Sequence record: OQ349392.1
Length of the DNA stretch: 64,000 nucleotides
Reading direction: 5' to 3' (one strand)
From: Escherichia phage KIT06
In this document: piece by piece, positions 4,226 to 49,114 of the stretch
Numbering within the stretch: position 1 is the first letter of the stretch
Layout: every line of letters starts with the position of its first letter
The notes under the pieces: generated by a model
The model's database searches: none
What the model was told of the DNA's origin: nothing
The model's input: only the letters and a program-made list of their open reading frames with translations
Program-made: the position numbers and the translations under genes

Positions 4226-4264
4226 GTTTACATACCACAAGGACTGTGGTACTATACAACTATC
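4226..4264 (+). promoter_or_regulatory. T4-type early promoter (GTTTAC, 18 bp spacer, TACTAT) including conserved 20-mer TGTGGTACTATACAACTATC
   Basis: GTTTAC at 4226-4231, TACTAT at 4250-4255, upstream A-rich tract; 20-mer shared with 3 other sites. Confidence 0.6.
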
Positions 4265-4282
4265 AGCTACGGAGGAGTAAAA

Positions 4283-4546
4283 ATGAAATTTAAATTTTAT
4301 TACGCTAAACATAAAATAACTGATGAGTTTGTGTCAGTTGAATATTCTAGCGATGATGAAGGTATGATTTATACTCGTTTGGGACTATCGCATTGGGAGT
4401 CTGATACGCCTTATTTTTCAACTCCTGAAGAAATTACACGCTTAGTTAATGGTCATATGAATGACCACTGGGATGTAATTCTTACAGATAGTCTTAAAGC
4501 GGCTATTAATAGTAATGAAATGAAAATCGCTGAGATTGAACTATGA
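4283..4546 (+). CDS. Hypothetical protein (87 aa)
   Basis: ORF with SD GGAGGAG 8 nt upstream of ATG. Confidence 0.5.
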   Translation: MKFKFYYAKHKITDEFVSVEYSSDDEGMIYTRLGLSHWESDTPYFSTPEEITRLVNGHMNDHWDVILTDSLKAAINSNEMKIAEIEL

Positions 4547-4731
4547 GTTCATTATGGTGGTGTTTTGTTTGGTTAATTAGTATTCCATTAATTTGTTTAA
4601 CATTTACTTTTGTGATGAGGTTATTATGAAAATTTTGAATTCTGTACTTATTGCTTGTGCGTGGTGGGTTGCGCAAGTTTCGGCAGTAGTGATTGGTATT
4701 CACATTTATTACGAATATTTTTAAAAAAGTT

Positions 4732-4770
4732 GTTTACAAGACTGTTCCTCTGTGGTACTATACAACTATC
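4732..4770 (+). promoter_or_regulatory. T4-type early promoter (GTTTAC-N18-TACTAT) with conserved 20-mer
   Basis: GTTTAC 4732-4737, TACTAT 4756-4761, 20-mer 4751-4770. Confidence 0.6.
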
Positions 4771-4789
4771 AACTACGGAGGAACAGAAA

Positions 4790-7664: not shown

Positions 7665-7810
7665 GTCCATTCATTGGTATTACAAGCGCTGCATTAGTAT
7701 CCGGTAGCATTTTACTGGCGGGTTTAGGTGTTGTTCCAGCCGTAGCAGGAGGTCTTCTTGCGTTCGGAATTCAACGTGTTATCATGACAGTTATCACAGT
7801 CATGCAGTAA
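7661..7810 (+). CDS. Small hydrophobic peptide (49 aa)
   Basis: ATGA overlap with gene 52 stop; glycine/alanine-rich hydrophobic sequence. Confidence 0.4.
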   Translation: MSPFIGITSAALVSGSILLAGLGVVPAVAGGLLAFGIQRVIMTVITVMQ

Positions 7811-7815
7811 TTTTA

Positions 7816-7841
7816 GGGAGAGCCTCGGCTCTCCCTTTTTT
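7816..7841 (+). terminator. Rho-independent terminator (GGGAGAGCC...GGCTCTCCC hairpin plus T6)
   Basis: Near-perfect inverted repeat followed by TTTTTT. Confidence 0.7.
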
Positions 7842-7866
7842 ATTTCAAAATTTTTTTCACAAAACG

Positions 7867-7905
7867 GTTTACAACCAAAGCATACTGTGGTACTATACAA
7901 CTATC
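7867..7905 (+). promoter_or_regulatory. T4-type early promoter upstream of motA (GTTTAC-N18-TACTAT)
   Basis: GTTTAC 7867-7872, TACTAT 7891-7896, conserved 20-mer 7886-7905. Confidence 0.65.
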
Positions 7906-7937: not shown

Positions 7938-8573
7938 ATGTCTAAAGTAACTTACATCATCAAAGCTTCTAACGATGTTCTGAATGAAAAAACTGCTGCG
8001 ATTTTAATTACTATTGCTAAGAAAGATTTCATTACAGCTGCAGAAGTTCGTGAGGTGCATCCAGATTTAGGTAATGCAGTAGTTAATAGTAATATTGGGG
8101 TATTGATTAAAAAAGGCCTGGTGGAGAAATCTGGTGATGGATTAATCATTACCGGTGAAGCTCAGGATATTATTTCAAATGCAGCAACTTTATACGCACA
8201 GGAAAATGCTCCGGAACTACTGAAAAAACGAGCAACTCGTAAAGCTCGCGAGATTACTTCTGATATGGAAGAAGATAAAGATTTCATGTTAAAACTTTTA
8301 GATGAAAATGGATTTGTTCTTAAAAAAGTTGAAACTTATCGTAGTAACTATCTCGCTATTTTAGAAAAACGCACTCACGGAATTCGTAATTTTGAAATTA
8401 ATAACAATGGAAATATGCGAATTTTTGGATACAAAATGATGGAACATCATATTCAGAAATTTACTGACATTGGTATGTCATGCAAAATCGCTAAAAATGG
8501 TAATGTGTATCTTGACATTAAACGCTCAGTAGAAAACATTGAAGCTGTAATCACTGTAGCATCTGAACTGTGA
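7938..8573 (+). CDS. motA: MotA middle-transcription activator (211 aa)
   Basis: 211 aa, same length as T4 MotA; position adjacent to gene 52. Confidence 0.88.
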   Translation: MSKVTYIIKASNDVLNEKTAAILITIAKKDFITAAEVREVHPDLGNAVVNSNIGVLIKKGLVEKSGDGLIITGEAQDIISNAATLYAQENAPELLKKRATRKAREITSDMEEDKDFMLKLLDENGFVLKKVETYRSNYLAILEKRTHGIRNFEINNNGNMRIFGYKMMEHHIQKFTDIGMSCKIAKNGNVYLDIKRSVENIEAVITVASEL

Positions 8574-10664: not shown

Positions 10665-11321
10665 TTATTTAGCCCTTCCTAATATTCTGGCCGCCTGAGA
10701 ACATATTGATTCAAGGCGGTCATTACTTATATGATCATTTCTATACCAGTACATGGTTATTGTTCCAGCATAGATGTTATCCAAATTAAAATATGGACAA
10801 CTGTACATGTAATTTATTTCGGGAGTAGGCTTTTTAGTTGGTAAAAAAGCAAATTTTGAATTGGAATAATAATGACGTCCATTTAAATGGACTGTATATT
10901 CATCCATAGTTTTATCAACAGGATATCCTCCAAGTGATTTTTCGGTTATTGTTGAAGGTAATCTTCCTTCGTATGCTATAATATCAACAAAATAGTTTAA
11001 GTTTTTAGGGCGGAAAGAATACACCGCACTAAAGTCTGCCTCAGATGATATGTGAACTATCTGGAGTTGTTCCAGGGCGACAGATTCAAAGCGTGCATTT
11101 CTTTCCTTTTCAATAATTTCACTGTATGTTTCATACTTTGATTGCTTATAGTACTCAAAGAAACTATCTCCCCTATACCAAACAATCGCCATTATAAACA
11201 AAAGAATTACGACAGCTACCCGGGAAGCAAGAACCTTCCCGGTAGCATTATCTTTGAACAAGCGATCTAGAACACCAAACAGAATATCAGAGGGCGAAAA
11301 TGATATTCTAGGTGCTGCCAT
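10665..11321 (-). CDS. t: Holin T (218 aa)
   Basis: 218 aa; N-terminal TM segment plus large periplasmic domain; matches T4 holin. Confidence 0.93.
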   Translation of the reverse strand: MAAPRISFSPSDILFGVLDRLFKDNATGKVLASRVAVVILLFIMAIVWYRGDSFFEYYKQSKYETYSEIIEKERNARFESVALEQLQIVHISSEADFSAVYSFRPKNLNYFVDIIAYEGRLPSTITEKSLGGYPVDKTMDEYTVHLNGRHYYSNSKFAFLPTKKPTPEINYMYSCPYFNLDNIYAGTITMYWYRNDHISNDRLESICSQAARILGRAK

Positions 11322-11351
11322 AGACCCTCCTTTTAAGGATATTTATTCAAA

Positions 11352-12143
11352 TTATACTCTTGCACCATATATTGTACCAACTTTAGTCCAAGTTGGAGCA
11401 TTACCAGTAACAGCTTTACCCGCAGCACCACCCGAGTGAACAGTTCCTCCAGTACCACCTTGAATATATGAAGATTTGCCAGCAGCTCCCAAATCTCCAC
11501 CATTTCCTCCATAGTGAACCCCAGAAACAGTACCTTTACCAGGAGCAGAAATTGTACCAGCAGATGCTGCCGCGGCACCGCCTCCAGCTTTACCTGCTGC
11601 ACCAAATGGACGACCTCCGCCGCCACCAAATATCATATCCATTTGAGGGAAAGGATGGTATCTAGCACCAGCGCCACCACCACCACCACCACCGATAATA
11701 CCATTATTGTTTATTCTTAAACGAGTTCCAATTCCGTTATTTATTGCAGTTCCTCCTGCTCCACCAGCAGAGTTACTTCCGCCATTTCCTCCTCGACCTA
11801 ATACATGAACCCCGCTATTAATATTTAAGGTAACGTATGCATTAGTTAATGAGCTAGGAAAATCTAAGCATGGAACACCAGTAGATTGAGAAACAATATT
11901 TCCTGTAATAGTAACAACAACAGGAGTACTACCTTGAGATTTGAGATAATTTATTAGCGTGTCTTTATTATAAGAATTGCTAGCACCAATGCTATAATAT
12001 ACTTCTTTAGATTGTCCAGCCATTGAGCTCATCCAACCAGGAACTGAAACACGAACTGCTTTCATTGCAGCGTCCATCCAACGTTGTCCAGTTTCATTCA
12101 CGGCAGATTCACCAATCCAGCCAGGAACACCTACAATTGCCAT
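11352..12143 (-). CDS. 38: Long-tail-fibre tip adhesin gp38, T2/T6 type (263 aa), with polyglycine motifs
   Basis: Glycine runs (GGGGGGGAG, GGGGR, GGNGG) separating variable segments; lies between gene 37 and t. Confidence 0.88.
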   Translation of the reverse strand: MAIVGVPGWIGESAVNETGQRWMDAAMKAVRVSVPGWMSSMAGQSKEVYYSIGASNSYNKDTLINYLKSQGSTPVVVTITGNIVSQSTGVPCLDFPSSLTNAYVTLNINSGVHVLGRGGNGGSNSAGGAGGTAINNGIGTRLRINNNGIIGGGGGGGAGARYHPFPQMDMIFGGGGGRPFGAAGKAGGGAAAASAGTISAPGKGTVSGVHYGGNGGDLGAAGKSSYIQGGTGGTVHSGGAAGKAVTGNAPTWTKVGTIYGARV

Positions 12144-12154
12144 TAAAAATCCTT

Positions 12155-12172
12155 AGAGGGCCGAAGCCCTCT
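12155..12172 (-). promoter_or_regulatory. Intercistronic hairpin between gene 37 stop and gene 38 start
   Basis: AGAGGGC-CGAA-GCCCTCT inverted repeat on the plus strand. Confidence 0.4.
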
Positions 12173-12173
12173 T

Positions 12174-15100
12174 TTACATAAGTTTAGATTCAAGTTCTTT
12201 TACACGAGCAGAAAGTGTTTTCACAGCTTCAACCAGAAGAGCAATCTGGGCTTGAGAAGAAACAGTGAGTATTTTATTACCCTTAATATCTTCAACTTCA
12301 CGAACTGCTTCAGGTAAAACATCTTGCAGTGTTTGAGCCACAATACCCGCTTCAGTCTGAACAATTTCACCACCTATATAGTCAGCTTTATCATAGATTA
12401 AACCATCAAGCTGTTCAACCTTTTCAAGAGCATTTTCAATAGGTCTGAAATTAGATTTCAAACGAATATCAGAACGAATATAAACGTTTGGGGCGTTTAT
12501 ATTCATGTCAGAATAGGTGTCACCTGTCTGGAATCTCATTCGGCGAGCTGCATTGGTCCAAACTTCTAAAAGACCGTCGCCAACCTGTCTGAAACCAGTA
12601 TCACTATCACCTATTACAATTGAGTTACCACCAAATCCGTTGCTTGTGTTAACACCAAGCGCCCCGGTAGAACCACAAGTCAATTTAGGGGTATAGAATG
12701 TACCGTCCATATCAAAAGTCCAACGAGCCTGTTGCCCTGATGCACTGTCACCACGCATGCGAATCATGCCTTGGCGCCAAGTACCAGGAACACCTAACCA
12801 TCCAAACTCAAACGATTGGCGATAACCCGCGTCAGTTAAAAGACTGTATCCAGAAAATAACGGGTAATAAGCTTGACTTGTCTTGGGAATGCTGCCAGTA
12901 TTCGCTAAGAATGCAGAACGGTCACGAGTCACATCAGAAATATCACCAAAGCTAGTGGACCACTGTCCTGCAACTTTAACTCGTGAATTAATGTTTCCAT
13001 TAATAGTAACATCTTTACCAAAAGAAGTATTTTCGTCAAGACGAACAGTACCAGCAGTCATATCAATTGAAAATGGTCGTTTTCCATTCCAACCACCTTC
13101 TGTTGCTGTGTTATCGCCGTCTGAAGCGTTTTTGTCGGTCAGTAAAATATAGAAGGTTCCACCATCATTTCGAAATAAAGCAGAATTAGAACCTGACCTA
13201 TCAGAATTACTCGTAATACGAATACCGGTTTGGTTATTAATAGCAATTTCAGATTCTGCTACATAACGCTTAACTTTACCGCGATCAACCAAGTTATTAA
13301 GAACATTAGCAACTTGACCGTTAACTGCTGTATCTGGAAGAGCATCTACAGGTGATTGTGTAGATGAGTTAATACCAATAACGCTAACAGTAGCATTTTC
13401 GGTACATGACCATTCACACGCTAGTTGATTACAATATGTTCCGGCATAAACATAAATGTCATATGTATTTCCAGAGACATTGTTAACTGCAATATTTCTA
13501 AATGCTGCGCTATACAGTCCAGATGTTCTTGTATATAATACAGCATTTAAGTCAGCAGGTCTTTCATTACCAGTACGTAAAATAATTTCAGCAATATTGC
13601 ATTGTGTGAATAATCCACTATTAAATCCAGAACCACCGGCTATTTTAAAGAAGACCGTAGAAGTAGATTGTGGCATTGTTACTGTTGCAAACTTATACCA
13701 TCCAGAGGTTGCTCCATAAGTAATAAATCCAGAATTAACTTTACGATTTAGCGTGGTATTTAAGTTGGCAAAGTTTCCTGAACCATTGGTAATATTACCG
13801 TCAGTTCCTAGTTGGGCATTGCCGACTTTAAGAGGCTTAGTAATATCGACAGAATCAGAATTTAATGCAATACCATGTGAATGTGTGTAGCTGTGCATAC
13901 GAACGACATTGCCGCCATCACCAATACCCAAATACCATTTAGGCACATCAGCCTTACGTCCTTGAATGAAGTTAGAAGACTCTTGTGTTGGAGCATTTAT
14001 TCTAATAGCATCGCTACTTGCATTAACTGTAATACGTTGACCAGCCGTAGTTCCAGCCACTTCTACTTTAAATCTTCCACCACCGATATCTACATCATGA
14101 TCCATGGAAACTTTACCATTACTTAATGTAATATAGAATGGACGTAAATTAGAAATGCCGCCTGATTCACCGGCATTCTGCGGAGTTGGAATAATATAAA
14201 ACTTATCTTCAGAACGACGGAAAATTGCGCCATATTCAGCATTCCAAATTCTTAATGCATCTGATGTTCCGCCGATTTTAACTTGCCCAGTAATAGAAGA
14301 ACCACCTTGGACAAACAAGCCGTTCTTCATTGTAACATTACCGTTTAAAGTGCTTAAACCATCAACTTTAAGATTTCCTGCAGTGCTAATAGAACCGTTA
14401 GCATTAACTGGTCCATTGAACTGGGTTACAACGGGCCCAACAGTTTCAGAACCTTCTGGGCGCTGGCGTTGTGAATAAAAATAATAACCTTGTGAATCAT
14501 ATACTTCAAATACAGTTTCTCTAATACCGGGAACTGAGTTAAAGGCATTACCCCATGCTTTAATTGAAACAGTATTTTTATTCTGTCCGTTACGAGTGCC
14601 TGCATCCCAGTTAATAGTTTTTGTCCCGTCAACACCTGTAGGCGCTTTAAATGACAAAGCATTGGTATTATCATCACCTGATAAAAATAATCCAGTACGC
14701 ATTGAAATACGTCGGGTTGAGTCAAATGTACCATCTGCTCTAATAGCAACTCTGTTAGAACCAGTGTTAATATCTAAAATTCCTGGTTCAACAAGGAGAC
14801 CTTGGGACATACCAACAGCCATACGACCTGTACCGCGGAAATAGTGATACATTTTAGAATTACTGTTATAACCGATATGAGTCTGACCATCGCCGTTATT
14901 ATTACCATCAATATCGGTACGCGCAGTAAACATTGCTTGGTTGTTATTTGGGAAATCCCAAGTAGAACCGGAATCTCGACTATAACCAACCATCAATTTT
15001 TTAGTACTATTAATACCATTATTCAAAATGGTAGCGGATGAAATACCGTTAGCCATCAGGTCATAAACGCCATCGCGGACCCATTTAATACCGGTATCGT

Positions 15101-16085
15101 TATCGCCAATCGCAATACCAATAGAAATTGCAGAATCAAGTGGATAACGGCCATTTGTACCACTATCAGGAAGACCTACTGAAATAGATTTACCTGCGGT
15201 AATACGTCCAGTGGTATCAAATGCCCACTGGAAAGACGAAGGTCCTACGCCGGTCCACCAAGAAATTTCTTGTGGCTTTCCTGAACGACAGTCAACTATT
15301 TCATGGAAAATGCTAGAAGTATTTGAAGCCCGCATTTTACGCATGTAGTTCAATCCGTTTGTATCACGGTCAGAACCATCTGCTGGTGGATTATAAATCC
15401 AAGTAGGTAAAGAAACAATGTCATAACCCGTGTCATTATTCGGTATAAAGGTTTTAGAACTCAGGTTAATATTTTTTGTATTGACGCGCGGTGCAGAAAC
15501 AAATCCAGTTGCCGAGTTAATATTGCCTGATGCAGAAATATTACCTGCACGGACTTCAATACTGCCATTATCTACAATAAAACTACCGTTACGATTAAAA
15601 GTCCAATATTTTGAATCACCAGATTCATTGATATATTGAATTTTAAAACTACCTTCGTTTACTAACGTACCAACAGAAAAAGTTCCATCTTTATAGCGTT
15701 GTTTAATTAGCGGATGGTATTCTGAAGTAGAAGTCGTTGAACTCAAATCGGTAAAGATAGGAGCTTTATTTTTATGTTGATTTGCCCAAGCACCATTACC
15801 AGCAGTTTTAGGTAAAAATTCAATATATTTTCCTGCATAAACAAACTGATTTCCATTAAGATTATATGTACCGTTCTGTAAATAATCTCCAGTTTGAGTG
15901 ATATTTCCACTGATATTACCGCCAGCGGAAATGCTTAAGTCAATGATATTTCCTGAATCATCTTTAGTAAAAATTGTTCTATCTTTTAAGTTTATAGCCA
16001 ATTCACCTTCGGCTAATACTGAAGCAGCAGGACGTGCACCTGCGGTTTTGCTTCTTTTAAATTGTATTTGTTTTAAAGTAGCCAT
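12174..16085 (-). CDS. 37: Long tail fibre distal subunit gp37 (1303 aa) with C-terminal intramolecular chaperone domain
   Basis: N-terminal half matches T4 gp37; C-terminus has S-D-I-R-L-K self-cleavage-like motif followed by coiled-coil tail. Confidence 0.9.
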   Translation of the reverse strand: MATLKQIQFKRSKTAGARPAASVLAEGELAINLKDRTIFTKDDSGNIIDLSISAGGNISGNITQTGDYLQNGTYNLNGNQFVYAGKYIEFLPKTAGNGAWANQHKNKAPIFTDLSSTTSTSEYHPLIKQRYKDGTFSVGTLVNEGSFKIQYINESGDSKYWTFNRNGSFIVDNGSIEVRAGNISASGNINSATGFVSAPRVNTKNINLSSKTFIPNNDTGYDIVSLPTWIYNPPADGSDRDTNGLNYMRKMRASNTSSIFHEIVDCRSGKPQEISWWTGVGPSSFQWAFDTTGRITAGKSISVGLPDSGTNGRYPLDSAISIGIAIGDNDTGIKWVRDGVYDLMANGISSATILNNGINSTKKLMVGYSRDSGSTWDFPNNNQAMFTARTDIDGNNNGDGQTHIGYNSNSKMYHYFRGTGRMAVGMSQGLLVEPGILDINTGSNRVAIRADGTFDSTRRISMRTGLFLSGDDNTNALSFKAPTGVDGTKTINWDAGTRNGQNKNTVSIKAWGNAFNSVPGIRETVFEVYDSQGYYFYSQRQRPEGSETVGPVVTQFNGPVNANGSISTAGNLKVDGLSTLNGNVTMKNGLFVQGGSSITGQVKIGGTSDALRIWNAEYGAIFRRSEDKFYIIPTPQNAGESGGISNLRPFYITLSNGKVSMDHDVDIGGGRFKVEVAGTTAGQRITVNASSDAIRINAPTQESSNFIQGRKADVPKWYLGIGDGGNVVRMHSYTHSHGIALNSDSVDITKPLKVGNAQLGTDGNITNGSGNFANLNTTLNRKVNSGFITYGATSGWYKFATVTMPQSTSTVFFKIAGGSGFNSGLFTQCNIAEIILRTGNERPADLNAVLYTRTSGLYSAAFRNIAVNNVSGNTYDIYVYAGTYCNQLACEWSCTENATVSVIGINSSTQSPVDALPDTAVNGQVANVLNNLVDRGKVKRYVAESEIAINNQTGIRITSNSDRSGSNSALFRNDGGTFYILLTDKNASDGDNTATEGGWNGKRPFSIDMTAGTVRLDENTSFGKDVTINGNINSRVKVAGQWSTSFGDISDVTRDRSAFLANTGSIPKTSQAYYPLFSGYSLLTDAGYRQSFEFGWLGVPGTWRQGMIRMRGDSASGQQARWTFDMDGTFYTPKLTCGSTGALGVNTSNGFGGNSIVIGDSDTGFRQVGDGLLEVWTNAARRMRFQTGDTYSDMNINAPNVYIRSDIRLKSNFRPIENALEKVEQLDGLIYDKADYIGGEIVQTEAGIVAQTLQDVLPEAVREVEDIKGNKILTVSSQAQIALLVEAVKTLSARVKELESKLM

Positions 16086-16093
16086 AAGTCCTC

Positions 16094-16756
16094 TTAATAA
16101 TAGCCGAAATCTTGAACAGAATCCTTAATTACGATTTGGTCAAATCGTGGAACGTGTGAAGGTTGAGATGCAGGATTCTGCGAGAAAAAGTTTGGTGCGG
16201 TTAAGTTTCCCGTCATAGTGTCACCAGATCGTAACACTCTAGAGTTCGCATTTGCCGTAACAGTATTTATTGCTCCATCAACATAGTCCTTCCTAGTAAG
16301 GTCATTAGCTGATACAGGAGAAACTGCATTACTTCTTATTTGACCTACTGCTGTCACGACGCCTTTTGTACTAATATCACCATTACGTGCATTAATTACA
16401 ACAGTTCGGTCTGCTGAACCTTGTGATGATTTAAAACCAATACCATTCCACGAAACGATGTCAATATTTGCCATAGCAAAAGTAGCTGCATCACCGTTGC
16501 CTGGATAAACACCGCACTGTTGACTACTACCTATAGTAGGAACATGTACTCCTCCATTAAATCGAACAGTCGCGGCATAAGTACCACCATTAGCTTTAGA
16601 AACGAAATCGTTATCTGCAGCTTGTGGTTTATTATATTCTGAATATATTTTAAATGATTTATAGAGTACATCGTCACCGGCTGGATTCAATGGAAAATTT
16701 CCTTGATGCCAAATGACAGAGCCTCCAGTTGTTGAACCTACTTTTAAATCAGCCAT
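16094..16756 (-). CDS. 36: Long tail fibre hinge subunit gp36 (220 aa)
   Basis: Length and position match T4 gp36. Confidence 0.85.
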   Translation of the reverse strand: MADLKVGSTTGGSVIWHQGNFPLNPAGDDVLYKSFKIYSEYNKPQAADNDFVSKANGGTYAATVRFNGGVHVPTIGSSQQCGVYPGNGDAATFAMANIDIVSWNGIGFKSSQGSADRTVVINARNGDISTKGVVTAVGQIRSNAVSPVSANDLTRKDYVDGAINTVTANANSRVLRSGDTMTGNLTAPNFFSQNPASQPSHVPRFDQIVIKDSVQDFGYY

Positions 16757-16779
16757 TGTATGCCCCTTTATTTTAATAG

Positions 16780-16787
16780 TATTTATA
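16780..16787 (-). promoter_or_regulatory. Late promoter TATAAATA for genes 36-37-38
   Basis: Plus-strand TATTTATA is TATAAATA on the minus strand, about 24 nt upstream of the gene 36 ATG. Confidence 0.6.
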
Positions 16788-16794
16788 AAGAAAA

Positions 16795-16822
16795 AGGGAA
16801 CCCGAAGGCTCCCTCAATTTAT
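16795..16822 (-). terminator. Hairpin terminator downstream of gene 35
   Basis: AGGGAGCC-TTCG-GGTTCCCT hairpin (one G-U pair) plus T-run on the minus strand. Confidence 0.5.
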
Positions 16823-17934
16823 ACTTCTCTAAATTCTTGCCCAAACACTTTACCAGTTTTAGACGATGCTTGTGTAGGAAGTACCATTATATCCGGAGGT
16901 GAAGCAGATTCACAGATATAATTAACGCGAATGCCGTTGACGCCAAATTCAGCAGGTTTCGAAATACCTCCATTTCTTGACACTTCAGAAAAGCTTAAAT
17001 TTCTCATGCCACCTTGACCAGCTTGCGCAGTTCTTTGCGCGTATATCGTAAATCCCACAGCGTTTTCTGGAACAACCACATAATCTTCCTTTAATTCCCA
17101 AGACCCAGCTTGTCCGGTAAACTCAGCTTGTGTCGAGGAAATATATCCATTAGATGCATTATAAAAGCGGATAGATATATTTGTAGTTCCAAGCGCAAGT
17201 AAATCTGCATCGGCATATAACTGAGCTTTAAGATAAAGAACATCGCCAGGAATTAAATTATAATCAGAGAGTTTACTTATAGCAGCTGAAGTTGGCAATC
17301 GCGCAATTTCGTTATTGGTTCCGCCAACTGCCGACATAAATTGATCAACGCTTTCATATGTTCTTTTTGGAAACCCGGTAGCTCCAACGTCTTCTAAACT
17401 GTCAAATACAACATCTAAAATAGTTTGATAATCATCTGTGCTTTTTCTATTACTTAATTTGACATGCTCTAATGCAATAGCTCTTTTAGAAGAAGTGTAA
17501 AAAGCAGCATATGATACGTCGAATCTTGACAATATAGAATCAGATGGAAAAGCAGACGTTCCTGCGGTTCTTAGCCAAGATACTACTTCAGGAGGAAAAT
17601 TAACCTTTCCGCTAGTTAATATAGCAACAAGTCTATTATTCGTCAAAGAATTCATGAAACTAACAAAAGCAGCTGATGTAGTATCATTTGAAGTAGAAAA
17701 AGCATATGACTTACTATCAACTAATGCTCCTGTGGAAGGGTCAAAAACTCTTAAATGAAGACCTGCGCTAAATGTTTGACTTCCGACAGGATTATCCTGA
17801 AATTTAACGTACGGTCCTGCAGTAGAAAGCGGGCAAGAACCCGCTATACTTATTTTGTATCTTACTGAATTACTTTCCGATAAAAATGGCGTTTGGACAT
17901 ATCCTTGTCCAAACTCTGCCATAAATTTTTCCAT
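16819..17934 (-). CDS. 35: Long tail fibre hinge connector gp35 (371 aa)
   Basis: Length and position match T4 gp35. Confidence 0.85.
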   Translation of the reverse strand: MEKFMAEFGQGYVQTPFLSESNSVRYKISIAGSCPLSTAGPYVKFQDNPVGSQTFSAGLHLRVFDPSTGALVDSKSYAFSTSNDTTSAAFVSFMNSLTNNRLVAILTSGKVNFPPEVVSWLRTAGTSAFPSDSILSRFDVSYAAFYTSSKRAIALEHVKLSNRKSTDDYQTILDVVFDSLEDVGATGFPKRTYESVDQFMSAVGGTNNEIARLPTSAAISKLSDYNLIPGDVLYLKAQLYADADLLALGTTNISIRFYNASNGYISSTQAEFTGQAGSWELKEDYVVVPENAVGFTIYAQRTAQAGQGGMRNLSFSEVSRNGGISKPAEFGVNGIRVNYICESASPPDIMVLPTQASSKTGKVFGQEFREV

Positions 17935-17942
17935 AATACCTC

Positions 17943-20900
17943 TTATTCAACCCATTCAAATTTAACCGTTTTATTCGCTGGGTCAGGAATAATGCGAACA
18001 TTACCAATTCGTAAGAAATCACGAATAGTAAGATTCCCCATTGTAGCATTATCAGATGGTAAAGCACCAATATCAGATGGTTGAGGAGGGTTACCTCCGT
18101 CAAATACCTGAACAAAACTCGACCAAGAGTTTTTGGTTTTCTGCCATGTACGTGTCCAGCGAGTGGTACGTGCTTCTGGAGTCGTTGGATAAGTAATCCA
18201 ATCTTGGTAAAGCGAATCAAGTGTGTTACCAAATTGAGTCAATGTACCAGGAGATTTAACTTCTTCGCCACGTTCTAAGTATGGAAGTCCAGTCACTTCA
18301 TTAGTTTTTTCAACCATTTTAAAATAACCCGGGAATTGGTTATAAGTAGCTGAATCATTAATATCGATTGACCAGAATCCTACAGTATCAGATGTTGGCG
18401 CACGGGTATATAAGTCAGATGTTTTAATGCCCTGAGAACGAATTCTCGAGTTAACAGTTAAGCCACCTGAGTTTATAGTAACACCTTTGGCAACGATTAA
18501 GCCTTCACCAATCGTTACTTGACCGGATGCATTGTTAATAGCTAAAGGACGTAATCCATTAAAACCACCAGTTTGGTCACCTGAATTAGTTAGCATAAAA
18601 TAGACATTAGCACCATCATTACGAATAAAGAATCCGTAATTACCACTAATAGCTCTAAAAGCATTCGATGATTTGCTAATGAATTCACCATTGGCTGTAA
18701 CTGAACGACCGAATGTTGCAGTGCCATTCACATTCATCAAACCGGAAGCATTAACATTTATTGGCATTACAGTACCATTAATGATAAACGCTATACTACC
18801 ATCTTTATTGCGTTGAGAATAAAAGTGATGAGATGTTTCATCGCCAACTTCAAACACGGTAGAACGAGTCGTATCCGAGCCGCCGCCAAACTGATTTCCC
18901 CATACTCTGATAGTCATCGTCTGTGCTGGGTTAGTTCCAGTTTGAGGTCCTTTTTCAAAAATCAGACGAGTTGCTGTTCCAGAGTTAGAAATAGTTAATG
19001 TACTATTTGCCGAAACTGAACCACCAAACGTAGCAGTACTAGATGATACAAGAGGGGCACTCAGATTCGTTTGTTGGGTTAAGGTTAGTGAACCATTAAC
19101 CGTCTGTGCAATATCCCTACGAATGAACTGGGATGAATCTAGACCATCCAGTAAATTACTATCTACGGCTTTTGCTTTTAATGGCAAGTAATTTGCTAAT
19201 ACACGGTTTAATTCATACGGTGATACTGCATAGCTATTTTTCTCGTATAATTCTAACGACTGTGTTGAACCAACTGTATCATTACCAACGAATGTAATTG
19301 AACCAGATGAAGTTTTAACAAAGCCTCTTATCGCAGTAGTAGCTGCCCAAGTAGGTTCACTCTGCGCAATCCATTTTAAATTTTTTGGAGATACAGCAGT
19401 ATTTGCTGACGTTCCAGCCACAGTTTCAGTCTGAGTTGCAACTTTAATAACACCTTCTTGCGATTCGGTAGATTTAGTACCTAAAAGCTTTTTAGGAGTT
19501 ATTAAAACATTATCCAATGTTCCTGCAGCAGCTTCAACTTGTGTAGCTACACGAAGTGTACCACGCTGTGTCTCATTTGCTTCAAGAATATTAAGGGTAT
19601 AATGGTCCCAGAGAGTTCCTGATTCAACTAATCCAGATAGAGCAACAACAGAAGTACGATCAGTACTATTAAATCTGGTTTTAATTTTTAATGGTGTAGA
19701 GATACGAGTATCGTCGACGCCCGCGTCGAATTCAACTTGTGTAGCAATTTCAGCTATACCACTTAAACTTTCAGTTGCTATACGGTCATTTAAAGTTTTA
19801 GGAGTGACTGCACGAGTATAATCAGTTCCTGTATTAACTTCACTTTGCGTAGCAATTTCAATTAAACCAATTCTTCCATCAGTTGATGTCTTTTTATGTA
19901 ACGTTTCTGGCGTTACAACAGCATTTGCCCATCCTTGCTGACTTTGTCCAGCAATTACTTCACTTTCAACTGCTAAAATTACTGCACCCTGTTGAGTAGG
20001 CGTAGCTTTATACTGATCCAAAGCTTTAGGTGAAACAACTAAATTATTAGTGTTTTTATTATAAACGTTTGTACCATTTAATTCACGACTAGAAGCTGGA
20101 GTAGCTCCTGCGGTAGATACAAAGGTTACAATACCAGATAATGATTCAGAACCTTGACGAGCTTGAAGCTTTTTAGGAGTGATGATTGTAGTATCATCAG
20201 TACCTGCATTAGTTTCCTGTTGCGTAGCAATTTCAGCAACACCTCTGCGAGTTTCAGTAGCAGTTCTTTCATTCAGCTTTTTAGGAGTGATGATAATATC
20301 GTCAGCAAAAGAGAATGTGGTGTTCTGATTCACTTGAGCAGTAGTTGCTATTCTTGCAATACCTCTGCGAGTTTCAGTAGCAGTGCGATTAGCTAACGTT
20401 TCTGGAGTAATTGCTAATTCTTTTTGTGGAGAATTTTCTAAATCGACGTTAGCTTGAGCTTGTGTAGCTAAAGCAATTACGCCTAATCTTGCTCTAGTAG
20501 AATCATTTAAAGAATCAACTCTTTCTACGGTTGGAACGTTTTGCTGTACAACCCAATATTTTCCATCAGAATCTTCTATATAAGCAAGCTCTAAAACTGG
20601 AACATAATTAGTTTCACCGTTAAAAACCAATTCTTGAACAGTTACCCATTTAGTTTCAGGCGGATATTCTGAACGTTTTGGGAATTGCAGCAATTGAACT
20701 GAAGAAGCAATTTTATCTTCACCGGCAGCTTTGATTTTAACTGTTTGTCCTTTTCTCATGTAATTCATGGAAATTTTAACAGTATCACCAACAGAAATAT
20801 TAGTTGGAAGCTGAAGTTCAATTGTTTGAGCTGTTCCGTTATTCGCACCAAATACCATAACTTCTTCATTTGGACGAATATTTGAATTAGTTGTTATAAT

Positions 20901-21812
20901 ACGTAAACGTGCTTTATTATCCCCGTCAAACAATCTCCACAATTTCTCATTATCATCAAACATCAAGAAACCGTCAATCGTTGTACGGCCTTCAATGGAA
21001 TGAGTTCCAACTTCTTGTATTGAAGTCGTTTCATCGTATGTAGTAACAATTGTATGATAAAGCGGATTTAGTTTATCTAAATCGACGAAATTAATAATAT
21101 CGCCATGATTAGCAAATCTTGGAAGTTTAACATTAATTGGTGCAGCAGAAGTAAATCTACGCACGATAAAATCGTTGGATTGCGCTTGATAAGTATTCGC
21201 TGGTGTTACAACTATAGCTTCTCTACTATAATCAGCAACATACATTTGCCACAGACGATTACTAAAAATTAAAACTAACTGTGATTTTGGATGAGTCATT
21301 AGTACTGAACGTACTTGTTCGCCTCTGAAGTTTACAATACTTTGCACTGGAGCTACAATTAAAACTTGGTTAACTCCAGGTTTTCCTCCAATATCTTGGA
21401 GAACGATAGTGTCACCGTCAATTGGGGAAGATGGTAAAGTAAATGTAATATCATTACCAGCTGCAGTGTTAACCGAAATAGCTTCACCGGATTTTAATTG
21501 ATATGAACCAGATGAAACTGTGATCCAGTTAGCATCAGTACGCAATGCTCTCCAGCGTCCACTATTAAAAGTTCCTGCCGGTTTTGGAATATCATTTATA
21601 GCAGCCCAAAAGCGGTTATCATAAATGATTACAAAATCTTTTAAATATCCACGAGTTGGATCATATTGTTGAACTGTGTTTTCTTGAATTAGGTAATCAA
21701 CGTTAACACCGTCAGTTCCTACGGCACGATCAGCTAAAGCTACGTTGATTATTTTATCGCCACCTGCGTCCAGACCATCTTCTGCTCTGAACTTTCTTTT
21801 AATCTCGGCCAT
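17943..21812 (-). CDS. 34: Long tail fibre proximal subunit gp34 (1289 aa)
   Basis: 1289 aa, same length as T4 gp34; internal roughly 36-40 aa repeats. Confidence 0.9.
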   Translation of the reverse strand: MAEIKRKFRAEDGLDAGGDKIINVALADRAVGTDGVNVDYLIQENTVQQYDPTRGYLKDFVIIYDNRFWAAINDIPKPAGTFNSGRWRALRTDANWITVSSGSYQLKSGEAISVNTAAGNDITFTLPSSPIDGDTIVLQDIGGKPGVNQVLIVAPVQSIVNFRGEQVRSVLMTHPKSQLVLIFSNRLWQMYVADYSREAIVVTPANTYQAQSNDFIVRRFTSAAPINVKLPRFANHGDIINFVDLDKLNPLYHTIVTTYDETTSIQEVGTHSIEGRTTIDGFLMFDDNEKLWRLFDGDNKARLRIITTNSNIRPNEEVMVFGANNGTAQTIELQLPTNISVGDTVKISMNYMRKGQTVKIKAAGEDKIASSVQLLQFPKRSEYPPETKWVTVQELVFNGETNYVPVLELAYIEDSDGKYWVVQQNVPTVERVDSLNDSTRARLGVIALATQAQANVDLENSPQKELAITPETLANRTATETRRGIARIATTAQVNQNTTFSFADDIIITPKKLNERTATETRRGVAEIATQQETNAGTDDTTIITPKKLQARQGSESLSGIVTFVSTAGATPASSRELNGTNVYNKNTNNLVVSPKALDQYKATPTQQGAVILAVESEVIAGQSQQGWANAVVTPETLHKKTSTDGRIGLIEIATQSEVNTGTDYTRAVTPKTLNDRIATESLSGIAEIATQVEFDAGVDDTRISTPLKIKTRFNSTDRTSVVALSGLVESGTLWDHYTLNILEANETQRGTLRVATQVEAAAGTLDNVLITPKKLLGTKSTESQEGVIKVATQTETVAGTSANTAVSPKNLKWIAQSEPTWAATTAIRGFVKTSSGSITFVGNDTVGSTQSLELYEKNSYAVSPYELNRVLANYLPLKAKAVDSNLLDGLDSSQFIRRDIAQTVNGSLTLTQQTNLSAPLVSSSTATFGGSVSANSTLTISNSGTATRLIFEKGPQTGTNPAQTMTIRVWGNQFGGGSDTTRSTVFEVGDETSHHFYSQRNKDGSIAFIINGTVMPINVNASGLMNVNGTATFGRSVTANGEFISKSSNAFRAISGNYGFFIRNDGANVYFMLTNSGDQTGGFNGLRPLAINNASGQVTIGEGLIVAKGVTINSGGLTVNSRIRSQGIKTSDLYTRAPTSDTVGFWSIDINDSATYNQFPGYFKMVEKTNEVTGLPYLERGEEVKSPGTLTQFGNTLDSLYQDWITYPTTPEARTTRWTRTWQKTKNSWSSFVQVFDGGNPPQPSDIGALPSDNATMGNLTIRDFLRIGNVRIIPDPANKTVKFEWVE
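19400..20460 (-). repeat. Degenerate intragenic tandem repeats (about 110 bp units) within gene 34
   Basis: Recurring TTTTAGGAGTGATGAT and CCTCTGCGAGTTTCAGTAGCAGT blocks; repeated I-T-P-K-K-L...A-T-Q motifs in the protein. Confidence 0.6.
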
Positions 21813-23112: not shown

Positions 23113-23428
23113 TATTCGTCCGGTCGATGAGACCGGTCTTTCAGAAAAAGAACTTTCAATTAAGAAAGAAAAGGATGAAATTGCAAAGCTTCTTGACCGT
23201 CAAGAAAATGGATTTATTATTGAAAAAATGGTAGAAGAGTTTGGAATGAGTTATCTTGAAGCTACAACAGCATTCTTAGAAGAAAATTCTATTCCTGAAA
23301 CTCAATTTGCTAAATTTATTCCTTCGGGTATAATTGAAAAAATTCAGTCAGAAGCTATTGACGAAAATCTTTTACGTCCTTCTGTTGTTCGTTGTGAAAA
23401 AACTAATACATTAGATTTTCTACTATGA
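23090..23428 (+). CDS. 33: Late-transcription co-activator gp33 (112 aa)
   Basis: ATG at 23090 gives 112 aa (T4 gp33 length); track ORF uses upstream TTG. Confidence 0.8.
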   Translation: MTQFSLNDIRPVDETGLSEKELSIKKEKDEIAKLLDRQENGFIIEKMVEEFGMSYLEATTAFLEENSIPETQFAKFIPSGIIEKIQSEAIDENLLRPSVVRCEKTNTLDFLL

Positions 23429-24078
23429 TTAAACTCCGCATGCCTGCTGGTGGTGAAAGATACATTGATGGTAAATCAGTTTATAAATTATACTTAATGA
23501 TAAAACAACATATGAATGGAAAGTATGATGTAATTAAGTATAATTGGTGCATGCGGGTGTCTGATGCCGCTTATCAAAAGCGAAGGGATAAGTATTTTTT
23601 CCAGAAGTTATCAGAAAAATATAAATTAAAGGAACTTGCTTTAATCTTTATAAGCAATCTTGTTGCTAACCAAGATGCTTGGATTGGTGACATCTCTGAC
23701 GCTGATGCACTTGTGTTTTATCGTGAATATATCGGACGCTTAAAGCAAATTAAATTTAAGTTTGAAGAAGATATTCGCAACATTTATTATTTTAGTAAAA
23801 AAGTTGAAGTTTCTGCTTTTAAAGAAATCTTTGAGTATAATCCAAAAGTTCAATCAAGTTATATTTTTAAACTACTTCAATCGAATATAATTTCGTTTGA
23901 GACGTTTATCTTGCTTGATTCGTTTTTAAATATAATTGATAAACATGATGAACAGACTGATAATTTAGTCTGGAATAATTATTCTATAAAGTTAAAGGCT
24001 TATAGAAAAATTTTAAATATTGACTCACAGAAAGCTAAAAGTGTTTTTATTGAAACTGTGAAATCTTGTAAGTACTAA
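23425..24078 (+). CDS. 59: Helicase loader gp59 (217 aa)
   Basis: 217 aa; ATGA overlap with gene 33; precedes gene 32. Confidence 0.85.
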   Translation: MIKLRMPAGGERYIDGKSVYKLYLMIKQHMNGKYDVIKYNWCMRVSDAAYQKRRDKYFFQKLSEKYKLKELALIFISNLVANQDAWIGDISDADALVFYREYIGRLKQIKFKFEEDIRNIYYFSKKVEVSAFKEIFEYNPKVQSSYIFKLLQSNIISFETFILLDSFLNIIDKHDEQTDNLVWNNYSIKLKAYRKILNIDSQKAKSVFIETVKSCKY

Positions 24079-24177: not shown

Positions 24178-25086
24178 ATGTTTAAACGTAAATCTACTGC
24201 TGAACTCGCTGCGCAAATGGCTAAACTGGCTGGAAATAAAGGTGGTTTTTCTTCTGAAGATAAAGGCGAGTGGAAACTGAAACTCGATAATGCGGGTAAC
24301 GGCCAAGCAGTAATTCGTTTTCTTCCGTCTAAAAATGATGAACAAGCACCATTCGCCATTCTTGTAAATCACGGTTTCAAGAAAAATGGTAAATGGTATA
24401 TTGAAAACTGTTCATCTACCCACGGTGATTACGATTCTTGTCCAGTATGTCAGTACATCAGTAAAAATGATTTGTATAACACTGACAATAAAGAGTACGG
24501 TCTTGTTAAACGTAAAACTTCTTACTGGGCTAACATTCTTGTAGTAAAAGACCCAGCTGCTCCAGAAAATGAAGGTAAAGTATTTAAATACCGCTTCGGT
24601 AAGAAAATCTGGGATAAAATCAATGCAATGATTGCAGTTGATGTTGAAATGGGTGAAACTCCGGTTGATGTAACTTGTCCGTGGGAAGGTGCTAACTTTG
24701 TACTGAAAGTTAAACAAGTTTCTGGTTTTAGTAACTACGACGAATCTAAATTCCTGAATCAATCTGCGATTCCAAACATTGATGATGAATCTTTCCAGAA
24801 AGAACTGTTTGAACAGATGGTTGACCTTTCTGAAATGACTTCTAAAGATAAATTCAAATCGTTTGAAGAACTGAGCACTAAGTTCAGTCAAGTTATGGGA
24901 ACTGCTGCTATGGGTGGTGCCGCAGCAACTGCTGCTAAGAAAGCTGATAAAGTTGCTGATGATTTGGATGCATTCAATGTTGATGACTTCAAAACAAAAA
25001 CTGAAGATGATTTTATGAGCTCAAGCTCTGGCAGTTCATCTAGTGCTGATGACACGGACCTGGATGACCTTTTGAATGACCTTTAA
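24178..25086 (+). CDS. 32: Single-stranded DNA binding protein gp32 (302 aa)
   Basis: Recognised sequence incl. acidic Ser/Asp-rich C-terminus; SD AAGGAAA upstream. Confidence 0.95.
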
Positions 25087-25108
25087 TAGATTATATTACT
25101 AATTAATT

Positions 25109-25133
25109 GGGGACCCTAGAGGTCCCCTTTTTT
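25109..25133 (+). terminator. Rho-independent terminator after gene 32
   Basis: GGGGACC-CTAGA-GGTCCCC hairpin plus TTTTTT. Confidence 0.7.
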
Positions 25134-25158
25134 ATTTCAAAAATTTTTTCACAAAACG

Positions 25159-25197
25159 GTTTACAACCAAAGCATACTGTGGTACTATACAACTATC
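25159..25197 (+). promoter_or_regulatory. T4-type early promoter (GTTTAC-N18-TACTAT), near-identical copy of the motA promoter cassette
   Basis: GTTTAC 25159-25164, TACTAT 25183-25188; 70 bp identical to 7836-7905 except 1 nt. Confidence 0.65.
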
Positions 25198-25210
25198 GGC
25201 AATACTGCTG

Positions 25211-25462
25211 ATGATGATTAAAGAGGAAAATAACATGGCTAAAATTGATATTGATGTTGTTGATTTTGAATATATTGAAGAAATTATTCGTAATCGTTAT
25301 CCTGAACTCCGTATTACAAGCGCACTAAATGACCCCAATTGCAATGTTTCAGTTGTTATTGAAGGTCCTTTAAATCGTCTTAAACAATTTATGGTTAATG
25401 AATATTGTGACGGTATGGATGCTGAAGATGTAGAATTTTACACAGGATTTATTGAGCAGTAA
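25211..25462 (+). CDS. Hypothetical protein (83 aa), frd-region small ORF
   Basis: ORF with SD upstream. Confidence 0.5.
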
Positions 25463-25506: not shown

Positions 25507-25887
25507 ATGTATACTGGTAGAAAATATGAACTTGTTCCAAGACTTATTGATACATTTATTAATTATAGTCCACGTTCTAATTCATCAATAGTTAAAGCTA
25601 TTCGAGATAATGGCGGATGGTTTGAAGTTAAAGAAGTTTCCTTCGCTAATGGATATAAAGCAGTAAAACACATTGAATGCGCAAATGGAAAGCATTTTTA
25701 CCTTAAAGATAGACTTTTAGAAATTTGTGAAGACGAATTTCATTGTTTTCGCGAGTATAAAGAATCGATTTCTGAAGAAGATGAAGTCAAAGACAAGGTT
25801 TCTGGCGTAACAAAAATTCACTGCATTGTAGACGAAAACAATGTAGATGAAATCATTGAACTTTTGCGAAAAACTTTCAAAAAGTAG
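25507..25887 (+). CDS. Hypothetical protein (126 aa)
   Basis: ORF with SD GAGGAAAA upstream. Confidence 0.5.
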   Translation: MYTGRKYELVPRLIDTFINYSPRSNSSIVKAIRDNGGWFEVKEVSFANGYKAVKHIECANGKHFYLKDRLLEICEDEFHCFREYKESISEEDEVKDKVSGVTKIHCIVDENNVDEIIELLRKTFKK

Positions 25888-25916
25888 TTTACAGAAGGGT
25901 AGTAGTGTGATACTAT
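25887..25916 (+). promoter_or_regulatory. Early promoter with internal inverted repeat (GTTTAC-N18-TACTAT)
   Basis: GTTTAC 25887-25892, TACTAT 25911-25916, GGGTAGTAGT/ACTATTACCC inverted repeat. Confidence 0.55.
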
Positions 25917-25941
25917 TACCCTATCAACTAAGGAGAATAAA

Positions 25942-26184: not shown

Positions 26185-26194
26185 GGAAAATAAT

Positions 26195-27021
<827 letters not shown>

Positions 27022-33965: not shown

Positions 33966-34019
33966 GTTTACAAGTCCCTCGTGTTGTGTTACAGTAGTCT
34001 TACTGACATAACATGAGGA
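33966..34019 (+). repeat. 54 bp promoter/5'UTR cassette, copy 1 (GTTTAC, imperfect inverted repeat, SD)
   Basis: Identical 54-mer also at 49061-49114. Confidence 0.8.
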
Positions 34020-34023
34020 CTTT

Positions 34024-34530
34024 ATGATGGATTTACAGCTTATTACTACTGAAATGGTCGTTGAAGCATACGGTGATACTACAGATGGGATTTCTGTATT
34101 TAAAGGAAATCGTCGAGTTGGATATATCACCGATCTTAAGAAAGATTTAGCTAAGCAAGTCAAGCGGAAAACGACTATTAAAGAATATCGAAATCGTCGC
34201 CTTGAGCAAGCCCGTGATATGCTTCCTGATGCGGTTGAGGAGATGAAAGTCTTTTTAGAAAATCAGCTTGCGAAATATGATTGTGATGTGTTCATTAATC
34301 AGACTCAACCTAATGTTCATATTAATAGCTGTAAATGCTACATCATCGTTAATCCTTTGACGGGAAAACATCGTCTTGGAATTAGTAATCCAAATCGTAG
34401 TGCATCAGATATGGCAGAAGATGTTGAGGCATGCTTTAAAATTTCTAAATCTCCGGCTGAACATCATATTTTAATTAACGGTCTTTCTCAAGACGATATT
34501 GTAGAGGTTATTAAAACTTTATGCATGTAA
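34024..34530 (+). CDS. alc: Alc, inhibitor of host transcription on cytosine DNA (167-168 aa)
   Basis: Length and position between rnlA and pseT-region ORFs; start may be the second ATG at 34027. Confidence 0.78.
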   Translation: MMDLQLITTEMVVEAYGDTTDGISVFKGNRRVGYITDLKKDLAKQVKRKTTIKEYRNRRLEQARDMLPDAVEEMKVFLENQLAKYDCDVFINQTQPNVHINSCKCYIIVNPLTGKHRLGISNPNRSASDMAEDVEACFKISKSPAEHHILINGLSQDDIVEVIKTLCM

Positions 34531-36944: not shown

Positions 36945-36974
36945 GTTTACTTTACGGTAGAGTTGTGATATTAT
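36945..36974 (+). promoter_or_regulatory. Early promoter with stem-loop (GTTTAC-N18-TATTAT)
   Basis: GTTTAC 36945-36950, TATTAT 36969-36974, GGTAGAG/CTCTACC inverted repeat. Confidence 0.55.
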
Positions 36975-37003
36975 AGCTCTACCAAACAAATGAGGAAATT
37001 GAA

Positions 37004-40505: not shown

Positions 40506-40536
40506 GTTTACTTTGGTACAGGATATGATATTATAT
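40506..40536 (+). promoter_or_regulatory. Early promoter with stem-loop (GTTTAC, GGTACAGG/CCTGTACC inverted repeat)
   Basis: GTTTAC 40506-40511; A/T-rich -10 region about 18 bp downstream. Confidence 0.5.
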
Positions 40537-40571
40537 ACCTGTACCGCAATTAAACATCTCGGAGAATAAAA

Positions 40572-44883: not shown

Positions 44884-44903
44884 GAATAAACACTAGAGAG
44901 GAT

Positions 44904-47000: not shown

Positions 47001-47003
47001 ATC

Positions 47004-49061: not shown

Positions 49062-49114
49062 TTTACAAGTCCCTCGTGTTGTGTTACAGTAGTCTTACTG
49101 ACATAACATGAGGA
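49061..49114 (+). repeat. 54 bp promoter/5'UTR cassette, copy 2
   Basis: Identical to 33966-34019. Confidence 0.8.

Follow-up and report, generated by a model that had tools for sequence, protein, structure and literature searches.

The cassette that follows gene 32 in the window, the whole 64,000-nt stretch of Escherichia phage KIT06 DNA analysed here (record OQ349392.1), is orthologous to the gene 32 terminator and frd.3 early promoter of T4, a feature known since the 1980s. Very probably, the intrinsic gene 32 terminator is joined here to an early promoter of the T4 type whose spacer has been replaced by the version found upstream of motA.

The window derives from a Tequatrovirus (T4/T2-like coliphage). 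A 2.5-kb segment around the gene 32 cassette shares 97.6% identity with Escherichia phage HMD-9 and matched 880 phage records, mostly from Tequatrovirus, and early transcription runs along the + strand of the window. Based on ORF size and order and on the annotation of HMD-9, T4, RB14, PST, T2, and T6, the following local map was obtained:

6336-7664: gene 52
7661-7810: motA.1
7938-8573: motA, followed by the arn genes and asiA
10665-21812, opposite (−) strand: t, 38, 37, 36, 35, and 34
Between the gene 34 side and gene 59: rnh, dsbA, and 33
23425-24078: gene 59
24178-25086, + strand: gene 32, single-stranded DNA-binding protein of 302 aa (ORF; annotation in the 97.6%-identical records and in T4)
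25235-25462, + strand: frd.3, encoding 75 aa with no known function and placed first after the cassette promoter
Between frd.3 and frd: frd.2, frd.1, and then an 81-aa ORF (26195-26440)
26440-27021: frd

The gene order 59-32-frd.3-frd.2-frd.1-frd is the same as in T4. The frd.3 start at 25235 corresponds to the 228-nt annotated frd.3 of T4, RB14, and T2, and the mechanical ORF extends over 25211-25462. A GAT/ATG triplet repeat of variable length is present in the frd.3 leader (25208-25219), with three ATGs in the window and RB14 and two in most relatives; the longer repeat creates an in-frame upstream ATG at 25211, which is why the mechanical ORF measures 83 aa rather than 75. According to the ORF list, the window has no copy of segG, the homing endonuclease gene that adjoins gene 32 in T4 and PST. 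Elsewhere in the window, the tail-fibre tip (11352-16085, − strand) is of the T2/T6 kind, with a 1303-aa gp37 and a 263-aa gp38 adhesin unlike the 183-aa chaperone that is gp38 in T4, and the lengths of both proteins differ in every genome compared. At 44900-49061 lies a tandem pair of paralogous genes, each about 2.1 kb long, with approximately 71% DNA identity between them; the product of the second is 685 aa long, and HMD-9 carries the annotation of an Alt-like RNA polymerase ADP-ribosyltransferase at the homologous position.

Between gene 32 and frd.3, the cassette and the leader are composed of the following elements:

25109-25127, + strand: terminator hairpin GGGGACC-CTAGA-GGTCCCC (terminator scan, RNA fold)
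25109-25115 and 25121-25127, + strand: stem arms of the hairpin, 7 bp including 6 G-C pairs, with a loop of five, CTAGA
25128-25133, + strand: T-run TTTTTT of the terminator
25128-25158, + strand: the T-run running into an A/T-rich, UP-like region, TTTTTTATTTCAAAAATTTTTTCACAAAACG
25150-25158, + strand: A-rich tract CACAAAACG
25159-25164, + strand: −35 element GTTTAC, with the sigma-70 hexamer TTTACA at 25160-25165
25165-25182, + strand: 18-nt spacer AACCAAAGCATACTGTGG, with the extended −10 TGG at 25180-25182
25183-25188, + strand: −10 element TACTAT
25189-25234, + strand: frd.3 leader, with the Shine-Dalgarno sequence GAGG at 25223-25226

The hairpin lies 22 nt beyond the stop codon of gene 32 (which ends at 25086), and the letters directly 3' of it read TTTTTTATTT. 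Its RNA fold, a 7-bp stem, has an energy of −14.3 kcal/mol with a modest z-score of −2.2, 8 of 200 shuffled sequences folding equally well. Between positions 20 and 30 kb of the window, no other strong terminator-like site was found on the + strand near gene 32, and the hairpin combines the structural elements of an intrinsic (Rho-independent) terminator, namely a G+C-rich stem-loop, an immediate T-run, and a location downstream of a coding region. The stem is kept in the 19 genomes compared, with the loop present in both orientations, and a terminator downstream of gene 32 has been found to be kept in five of six T4-like genomes (PMC1524935). An Rfam scan of the whole window gave no match at the gathering threshold, and an IMG/VR scan for the gene 32 hairpin returned one contig only.

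The segment 25061-25150, which contains the last 26 nt of gene 32 and the hairpin, also matches three plasmids, each with two copies at 98.9% identity; the copies of the gene 32 3' end and hairpin flank a resistance gene in all three, aph(3')-IIIa in the case of pCoo, and thereby offer indirect support for termination. The Omega interposon of Prentki and Krisch, dating from 1984, is said to carry transcription terminators from T4 gene 32, and the plasmid copies are consistent with this laboratory interposon. Their likeness to the window is the twofold 98.9% match in each plasmid; they differ in being laboratory constructs with only the gene 32 3' end and hairpin, without the downstream promoter.

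Both terminator hairpins in question, that after gene 32 (25109-25127) and that upstream of motA (7816-7835), come in two versions, each the exact reverse complement of the other, with the loop flipped. The gene 32 loop reads CTAGA in the window, T4, T6, HMD-9, and bov9_1 and TCTAG in RB14, PST, and T2, and the motA-upstream loop reads TC in the window, RB14, PST, and T6 and GA in T4, HMD-9, bov9_1, and T2. Such flipped loops look like the result of template-switch inversion at a palindrome. The record of Escherichia phage BYEP02 shows the 3' end of gene 32 duplicated in tandem over 77 bp, up to a point within the hairpin; since gene 32 is also split into two CDS in that record, this is probably a sequencing or assembly error.

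The promoter has all the elements of a T4 early promoter (Pe): GTTTAC, TGn, a −10 element of the TAnnnT form, and an A-rich tract at about −40. The consensus of T4 early promoters places GTTTAC at −36 to −31 (PMC1524935), they carry UP elements (PMC2988021; PMC1524935), and they have been classed as UP/−35/TGn/−10 promoters with unusually long consensus regions (PMC2988021). Judged from the sequence and the usual 7-nt distance, transcription would start near 25195. A MotA box (TGCTT at −30) is absent from the cassette promoter sequence, which therefore does not suggest a middle promoter. The leader contains a part common to the promoter subfamily (ACAACTATC), after which the locus-specific sequence GGCAATACTG begins, and GGCAAT was found at the gene-32-downstream locus in 19 of 19 genomes. 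Across the window, the pattern GTTTAC-N17-19-TANNAT has 10 matches, all on the + strand, versus 0.78 expected; a G+C hairpin and T-run lie directly upstream in three of them (7867, 25159, and 40114).

Early promoters of another form are located at 25887-25925, 36945-36985, and 40506-40545, where an inverted repeat extends across the −10 box and the spacer pairs with the +1 region. The arms of the frd.1 promoter covary, the window reading GGGTAG...TACCC where RB14 and an IMG/VR contig read GGCTAT...ATAGCC. Promoters with such an inverted repeat across the −10 box are a subclass of the PeSLs (promoter-early stem-loops) in which the stem lies over the −10 element.

Further members of the promoter family in the window are:

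7816-7905, + strand: partner cassette upstream of motA, with GTTTAC at 7867-7872, the spacer at 7873-7890, and TACTAT at 7891-7896
4226-4264, + strand: family member downstream of denB, spacer ATACCACAAGGACTGTGG
4732-4770, + strand: family member in the ndd region, spacer AAGACTGTTCCTCTGTGG

The repeat finder aligned 7808-7905 with 25100-25197 without gaps at 87% identity and an offset of 17,292 nt, and within this alignment the segments 7833-7905 and 25125-25197 match at 72 of 73 positions. The hairpin sequences of the two copies are unlike; the motA-upstream hairpin, GGGAGAGCC-TC-GGCTCTCCC at 7816-7835, folds at −21.1 kcal/mol (z = −5.7) and is followed by a T-run and the same upstream block. 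This block, which begins with the T-run, reaches the −35 element, and measures 38 nt, occurs solely at 7836 and 25128 even when up to three mismatches are allowed. The 20-mer TGTGGTACTATACAACTATC has exactly four copies in the window (4245, 4751, 7886, and 25178), whereas none arose in 100 shuffles. The preliminary description of this DNA, which had claimed the hairpin at 25109-25127, the T-run, GTTTAC-N18-TACTAT, a near-identical direct repeat about 17.3 kb away, and shorter copies of the 20-mer core at 4245 and 4751, thus agrees with what was found. Extended identity on realignment, one of the two points on which it had staked the claim, is borne out by the 73-nt core from 7833/25125 to 7905/25197, and its statement that the copies bracket the tail-fibre, rnh, and gene 32 region accords with the local map.

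The spacer of the ndd-region promoter (4732) matches that of the T4 nrdC.8-upstream promoter at 17 of 18 positions. The latter promoter (at approximately 53943 of T4, minus strand; spacer AAGACCGTTCCTCTGTGG) forms a distant spacer-sharing pair with window 4732-4761. Another pair lies within the window itself, 15.1 kb apart, where promoter and leader are identical over 54 of 54 nt between 33966-34019 and 49061-49114 (GTTTAC...TGTTACAGT...GAGGA). One copy precedes an alc-like ORF (34024-34530), the other precedes a 96-aa ORF (49122-49412) just after the Alt-like gene, and the flanks of the two are unrelated. This pair probably reflects the same kind of copying as the gene 32 and motA cassettes.

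The gene-32-downstream locus was compared across 19 genomes drawn from an identity-ranked list, which is not a random sample. The hairpin, upstream block, −35 element, −10 element, and leader are conserved among them, and the spacer, 18 nt long in all alleles, occurs in four unrelated types that differ pairwise at 8-11 of the 18 positions:

Type A, ATCCTTGTCCTTCCATGG and close variants: T2, T6, PST, PP01, RB18, Kha5h, Ozark, YUEEL01, O157 typing phage 7, and one IMG/VR contig; the same spacer is found upstream of e.8 in AR1
Type M, AACCAAAGCATACTGTGG: the window, bov9_1, and RB14, and UFV-AREG1 with 1 mismatch; equal to the motA-upstream spacer
Type N, AAGCATAAAGCTTTATGG: T4 and BYEP02; equal to the nrdC.10-upstream spacer in T2 and T4
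Type D, ATACCACAAGGACTGTGG: SH7 and teqhad exactly, and HMD-9 with 2 mismatches; equal to the denB-downstream spacer (window 4226)

When the window, T4, and HMD-9 are aligned, the T-run, the upstream block, the −35 element, and the region from −10 to +8 are common to both loci; the motA-upstream spacer is constant, and the gene-32-downstream spacer is different in each phage. Identical motA-upstream spacers were read in the window and eight other genomes as well as in the motA-upstream copies of UFV-AREG1 and FJ1, and the putative donor loci upstream of motA and nrdC.10 are nearly invariant. The window and HMD-9, its closest relative, differ at 23 of 1101 positions, 9 of which fall inside 25150-25182 (P of about 1e-8, binomial). 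T-even genomes are mosaics, and every spacer type is combined with different frd.3 haplotypes and with both hairpin-loop orientations.

The allele-specific megablast searches required a 28-nt exact word and missed variants, so that the resulting allele counts are lower bounds. The motA allele probe matched at least 436 phage records (428 of these at 99% or more) at no fewer than 467 places, the nrdC.10 allele probe at least 451 records and at least 513 places, and the type A probe at least 243 records and at least 279 places, one being the AR1 site upstream of e.8; the HMD-9 spacer variant was present in at least nine records. The excess of places over records suggests that about 31 sequenced phages have two motA-type promoter copies, like the window, and that about 62 have two nrdC.10-type copies, like T4. 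The region of T4 at 52.6-55.0 kb was considered as the home of the T4 spacer allele and rejected, as it held the nrdC.8-upstream promoter; the allele in fact resides upstream of nrdC.10.

At the nrdC.10-upstream cassette, T2 and T4 agree in the promoter and differ in the hairpin (GGGGGCCCTAGAGGTCCCC in T2, GGGAGCCTTCGGGCTCCC in T4). The T2 form is one base away from the gene 32 hairpin, a near-match suggesting that hairpins, besides spacers, have been exchanged between cassettes. In UFV-AREG1 and FJ1, a third hairpin type is found upstream of motA.

A plausible course of events can be proposed from these observations. RNA polymerase arriving from gene 32 would meet the 7-bp G+C-rich hairpin and U-run and release its transcript, and host sigma-70 polymerase would restart about 30 nt further on, at the early promoter, producing a transcript that extends through frd.3 and frd.2 as far as the following promoter, at 25887; both putative activities are assigned to the cassette from the T4 and PeSL literature and from consensus. 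The motA-upstream and gene-32-downstream promoters belong to one T-even early-promoter subfamily, with some 38 nt in common before the spacer and some 18 nt in common starting at the −10 element. In the window lineage, according to the simplest account, the 18-nt gene-32-downstream spacer was very probably replaced by the motA-upstream spacer in a non-reciprocal, short-patch event, the changed bases within the copied patch lying at 25165-25179. The shared 38-nt and ~18-nt blocks may have acted as homology arms, and T4 recombination works on less than 50 bp of homology (cited in PMC2839356). The molecular route may have been either gene conversion (heteroduplex repair) or replicative template switching, which would yield the same product. 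In other lineages, the gene-32-downstream spacer would have been overwritten from the nrdC.10-upstream or denB-downstream promoters.

The presence of spacers from several donors suggests that the cassette family exchanges small patches over 17 to ~90 kb, and a variable, donor-matching spacer at a fixed locus, combined with near-invariant donors, argues that the near-identity of the two copies reflects short-patch ectopic copying. It thus appears from the spacer matches that spacers have been copied between cassettes, while the direction of copying is suggested solely by the invariance of the donor loci. It is also conceivable, if rather improbable, that the gene-32-downstream promoter is a preferred recipient of such copying, with at least three donors seen. 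In that case, the terminator-promoter cassettes of T-even phages would undergo concerted evolution, exchanging promoter alleles while their genes stay in place. Going further, the copying might be targeted to this promoter, triggered either by double-strand breaks that the SegG homing endonuclease makes near gene 32 or by hairpin-directed cleavage, instead of background recombination.

If strong early promoters are under a shared functional constraint, the two copies could be alike merely for that reason, with no exchange. The long consensus regions of T4 early promoters (PMC2988021) favor such a view, as does T4, in which both loci share the upstream block and the stretch from −10 to +8 despite their different spacers. 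However, the spacer itself is unconstrained, its four types, with their 8-11 differences, lying within conserved flanks, and three of these types equal the spacer of another locus, each at 18 of 18 positions in at least one genome. Since convergence at 18 of 18 positions on three occasions is not credible, constraint alone is contradicted and must be regarded as extremely improbable. Alternatively, the spacer swaps may be adaptive, with alleles setting the strength of frd.3-frd.2 expression or the response to Alt ADP-ribosylation and with selection keeping the polymorphism. Some T4 early promoters have the same −35, TGn, and −10 elements yet differ in their Alt response (PMC2988021), and because no single position explains this response, the spacer sequence could matter; the length of 18 in all alleles is also in line with selection. 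Nevertheless, neutral conversion would predict the same pattern equally well, which leaves an adaptive role doubtful, and such a role adds to short-patch copying from motA rather than replacing it. As for a small mobile element (MITE-like or homing-associated) inserted after gene 32, the sequence is indeed repeated and dispersed, and segG adjoins gene 32 in T4 and PST, but each of the 19 genomes sampled has the cassette at one and the same place, between gene 32 and frd.3, and no empty site was found among them. It also has neither a target-site duplication nor terminal inverted repeats, only its inner 15-26 nt vary, and the window is devoid of segG, so the probability of an insertion is close to negligible.

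Rearrangement on a larger scale was implied by the preliminary description, which had suggested looking for deletion or inversion variants between the copies, and this idea is not supported. The copies are direct repeats, so that inversion of the interval is impossible, and the eight genomes read at both loci share one gene order, with a spacing of 16.35-17.4 kb. The deletion junction (motA.1 hairpin joined to frd.3 leader) was covered over at least 80% of the query at no place in 502 matching records, and the circle or duplication junction (gene 32 hairpin joined to motA leader) was absent from about 500 Tequatrovirus records. Three full-length hits (94-95%) to the circle-junction query were rejected as motA-upstream cassettes with a third hairpin, GGGGAGCTTCGGCTCCCC. 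The interval from motA to gene 32 holds genes essential to T4 (motA, asiA, 34-38, 33, 59, and 32); viable deletions are therefore not expected, such a loss being lethal, and a 17-kb duplication would exceed headful capacity. All of this weighs against the possibility that the direct repeats drive reciprocal recombination of the 17.3-kb motA-gene 32 segment as a large-scale PeSL mini-circle that moves the tail-fibre module. Although the 72 of 73 matching nucleotides of the repeats, the PeSL mini-circles of phi1/RB49, and the homology requirement of T4 of less than 50 bp (PMC2839356) are in its favor, we consider this very unlikely. The exchange to which the copies point, as far as sequence comparison can tell, is non-reciprocal and restricted to a short patch, the promoter spacer.

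The genes flanking the cassette (gene 32, frd.3, and frd.2) are constant in nine genomes, and ORFs are gained or lost only further downstream, from the frd.1 promoter onwards and ahead of frd. A length difference of about 340 bp in some relatives was traced not to the cassette but to an additional ORF that separates frd.1 from frd. In the 26185-26440 region, the 81-aa ORF of the window (26195-26440) is missing in T4; bov9_1, PST, and T6 have an extra ORF of approximately 111-119 aa after frd.1, and in the IMG/VR contig an additional ORF separates frd.2 from frd.1. Following the denB-downstream promoter (4226-4780), a 207-nt ORF is present in HMD-9, bov9_1, RB14, and PST and absent in the window and T6, and T2 retains this ORF without the next one. 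PeSL-linked exchanges have been described in the ndd/denB region (PMC4122927).

In functional terms, the cassette corresponds to textbook T4 regulation, in which it would insulate gene 32 transcription and restart early transcription for the frd.3-frd cluster. Spacer swapping at a fixed locus would constitute direct sequence evidence of recombination among dispersed T-even terminator-promoter cassettes. Such recombination is the premise of the PeSL modular-shuffling model and is supported here, with an outcome that appears to be promoter patch conversion rather than gene gain or loss. In practice, near-identical cassettes of 70-100 nt with flipping loops can mislead assembly, rearrangement calls based on repeats, and promoter annotation in T4-like genomes.

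Among known systems, T4 itself (NC_000866, intergenic 146803-146947) has its cassette at the same position between gene 32 and frd.3, and its hairpin (GGGGACCCTAGAGGTCCCC), T-run, −35 element, −10 element, +1 region, and leader are identical to those of the window, with the upstream block one base off (T for C at window 25138). In contrast, its spacer, AAGCATAAAGCTTTATGG, is that of its own nrdC.10-upstream promoter, whereas the window spacer, AACCAAAGCATACTGTGG, is the motA-upstream one. With respect to T4 early promoters (Pe) as a class, the likeness includes the UP-like A-rich tract, GTTTAC, TGn, the −10 element, and co-orientation with early genes; there is no difference in kind, although the cassette subfamily is more uniform than the whole class.

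Promoter and terminator activities have been shown for the PeSLs of phi1/RB49 (Arbiol et al. 2010, PMC2839356), where recombination from PeSL to PeSL yields mini-circles (PMC2839356). These elements resemble the window cassette in combining a terminator or attenuator with a strong sigma-70 promoter as a linker and recombination site. However, the RB49-type promoter is near TTGACA-N17-TATAAT, and its poly-G/poly-C stems often lie over the boxes or between them, unlike the window cassette, and the phi1/RB49 mini-circles join nearby PeSLs, whereas the window copies are 17.3 kb apart and no junction between them was found.

The PeSLs of PST/T4, according to Comeau, Arbiol and Krisch 2014 (PMC4122927), have a stem-loop just upstream of TTTACW-N17-TAYWAT. 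In the window, TTTACA-N17-TACTAT lies at 25160-25188, preceded by the A/T-rich TTTTTTATTTCAAAAATTTTTTCACAAAACG, and the stem-loop at 25109-25127 ends 31 nt before the −35 element. The composite is intergenic, being located between the gene 32 stop at 25086 and the frd.3 ATG at 25235 with GAGG at 25223-25226, and its promoter pattern is repeated, with 10 matches in 64 kb. A link to ORF insertion, deletion, or replacement was not seen at the cassette in nine genomes, an association that is a statistical tendency of the PeSL family rather than a strict criterion. The layout fits the published PST/T4 class, and the label of PeSL-like terminator-promoter cassette given in the preliminary description is therefore right, the cassette being already known. 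The likeness comprises the stem-loop/early-promoter composite, the A/T-rich upstream region, the intergenic position, and repetition in the genome; the difference is that the PST/T4 PeSLs are sites of ORF exchange in hyperplastic regions, whereas here only an internal patch appears to have been exchanged. A donor-matching polymorphic spacer is not described in the available portions of PMC4122927 or PMC2839356, and the term "gene conversion" is absent from the available text of the former. Taken together, the cassette is known biology with a modest new comparative detail, the swapping of promoter spacers.
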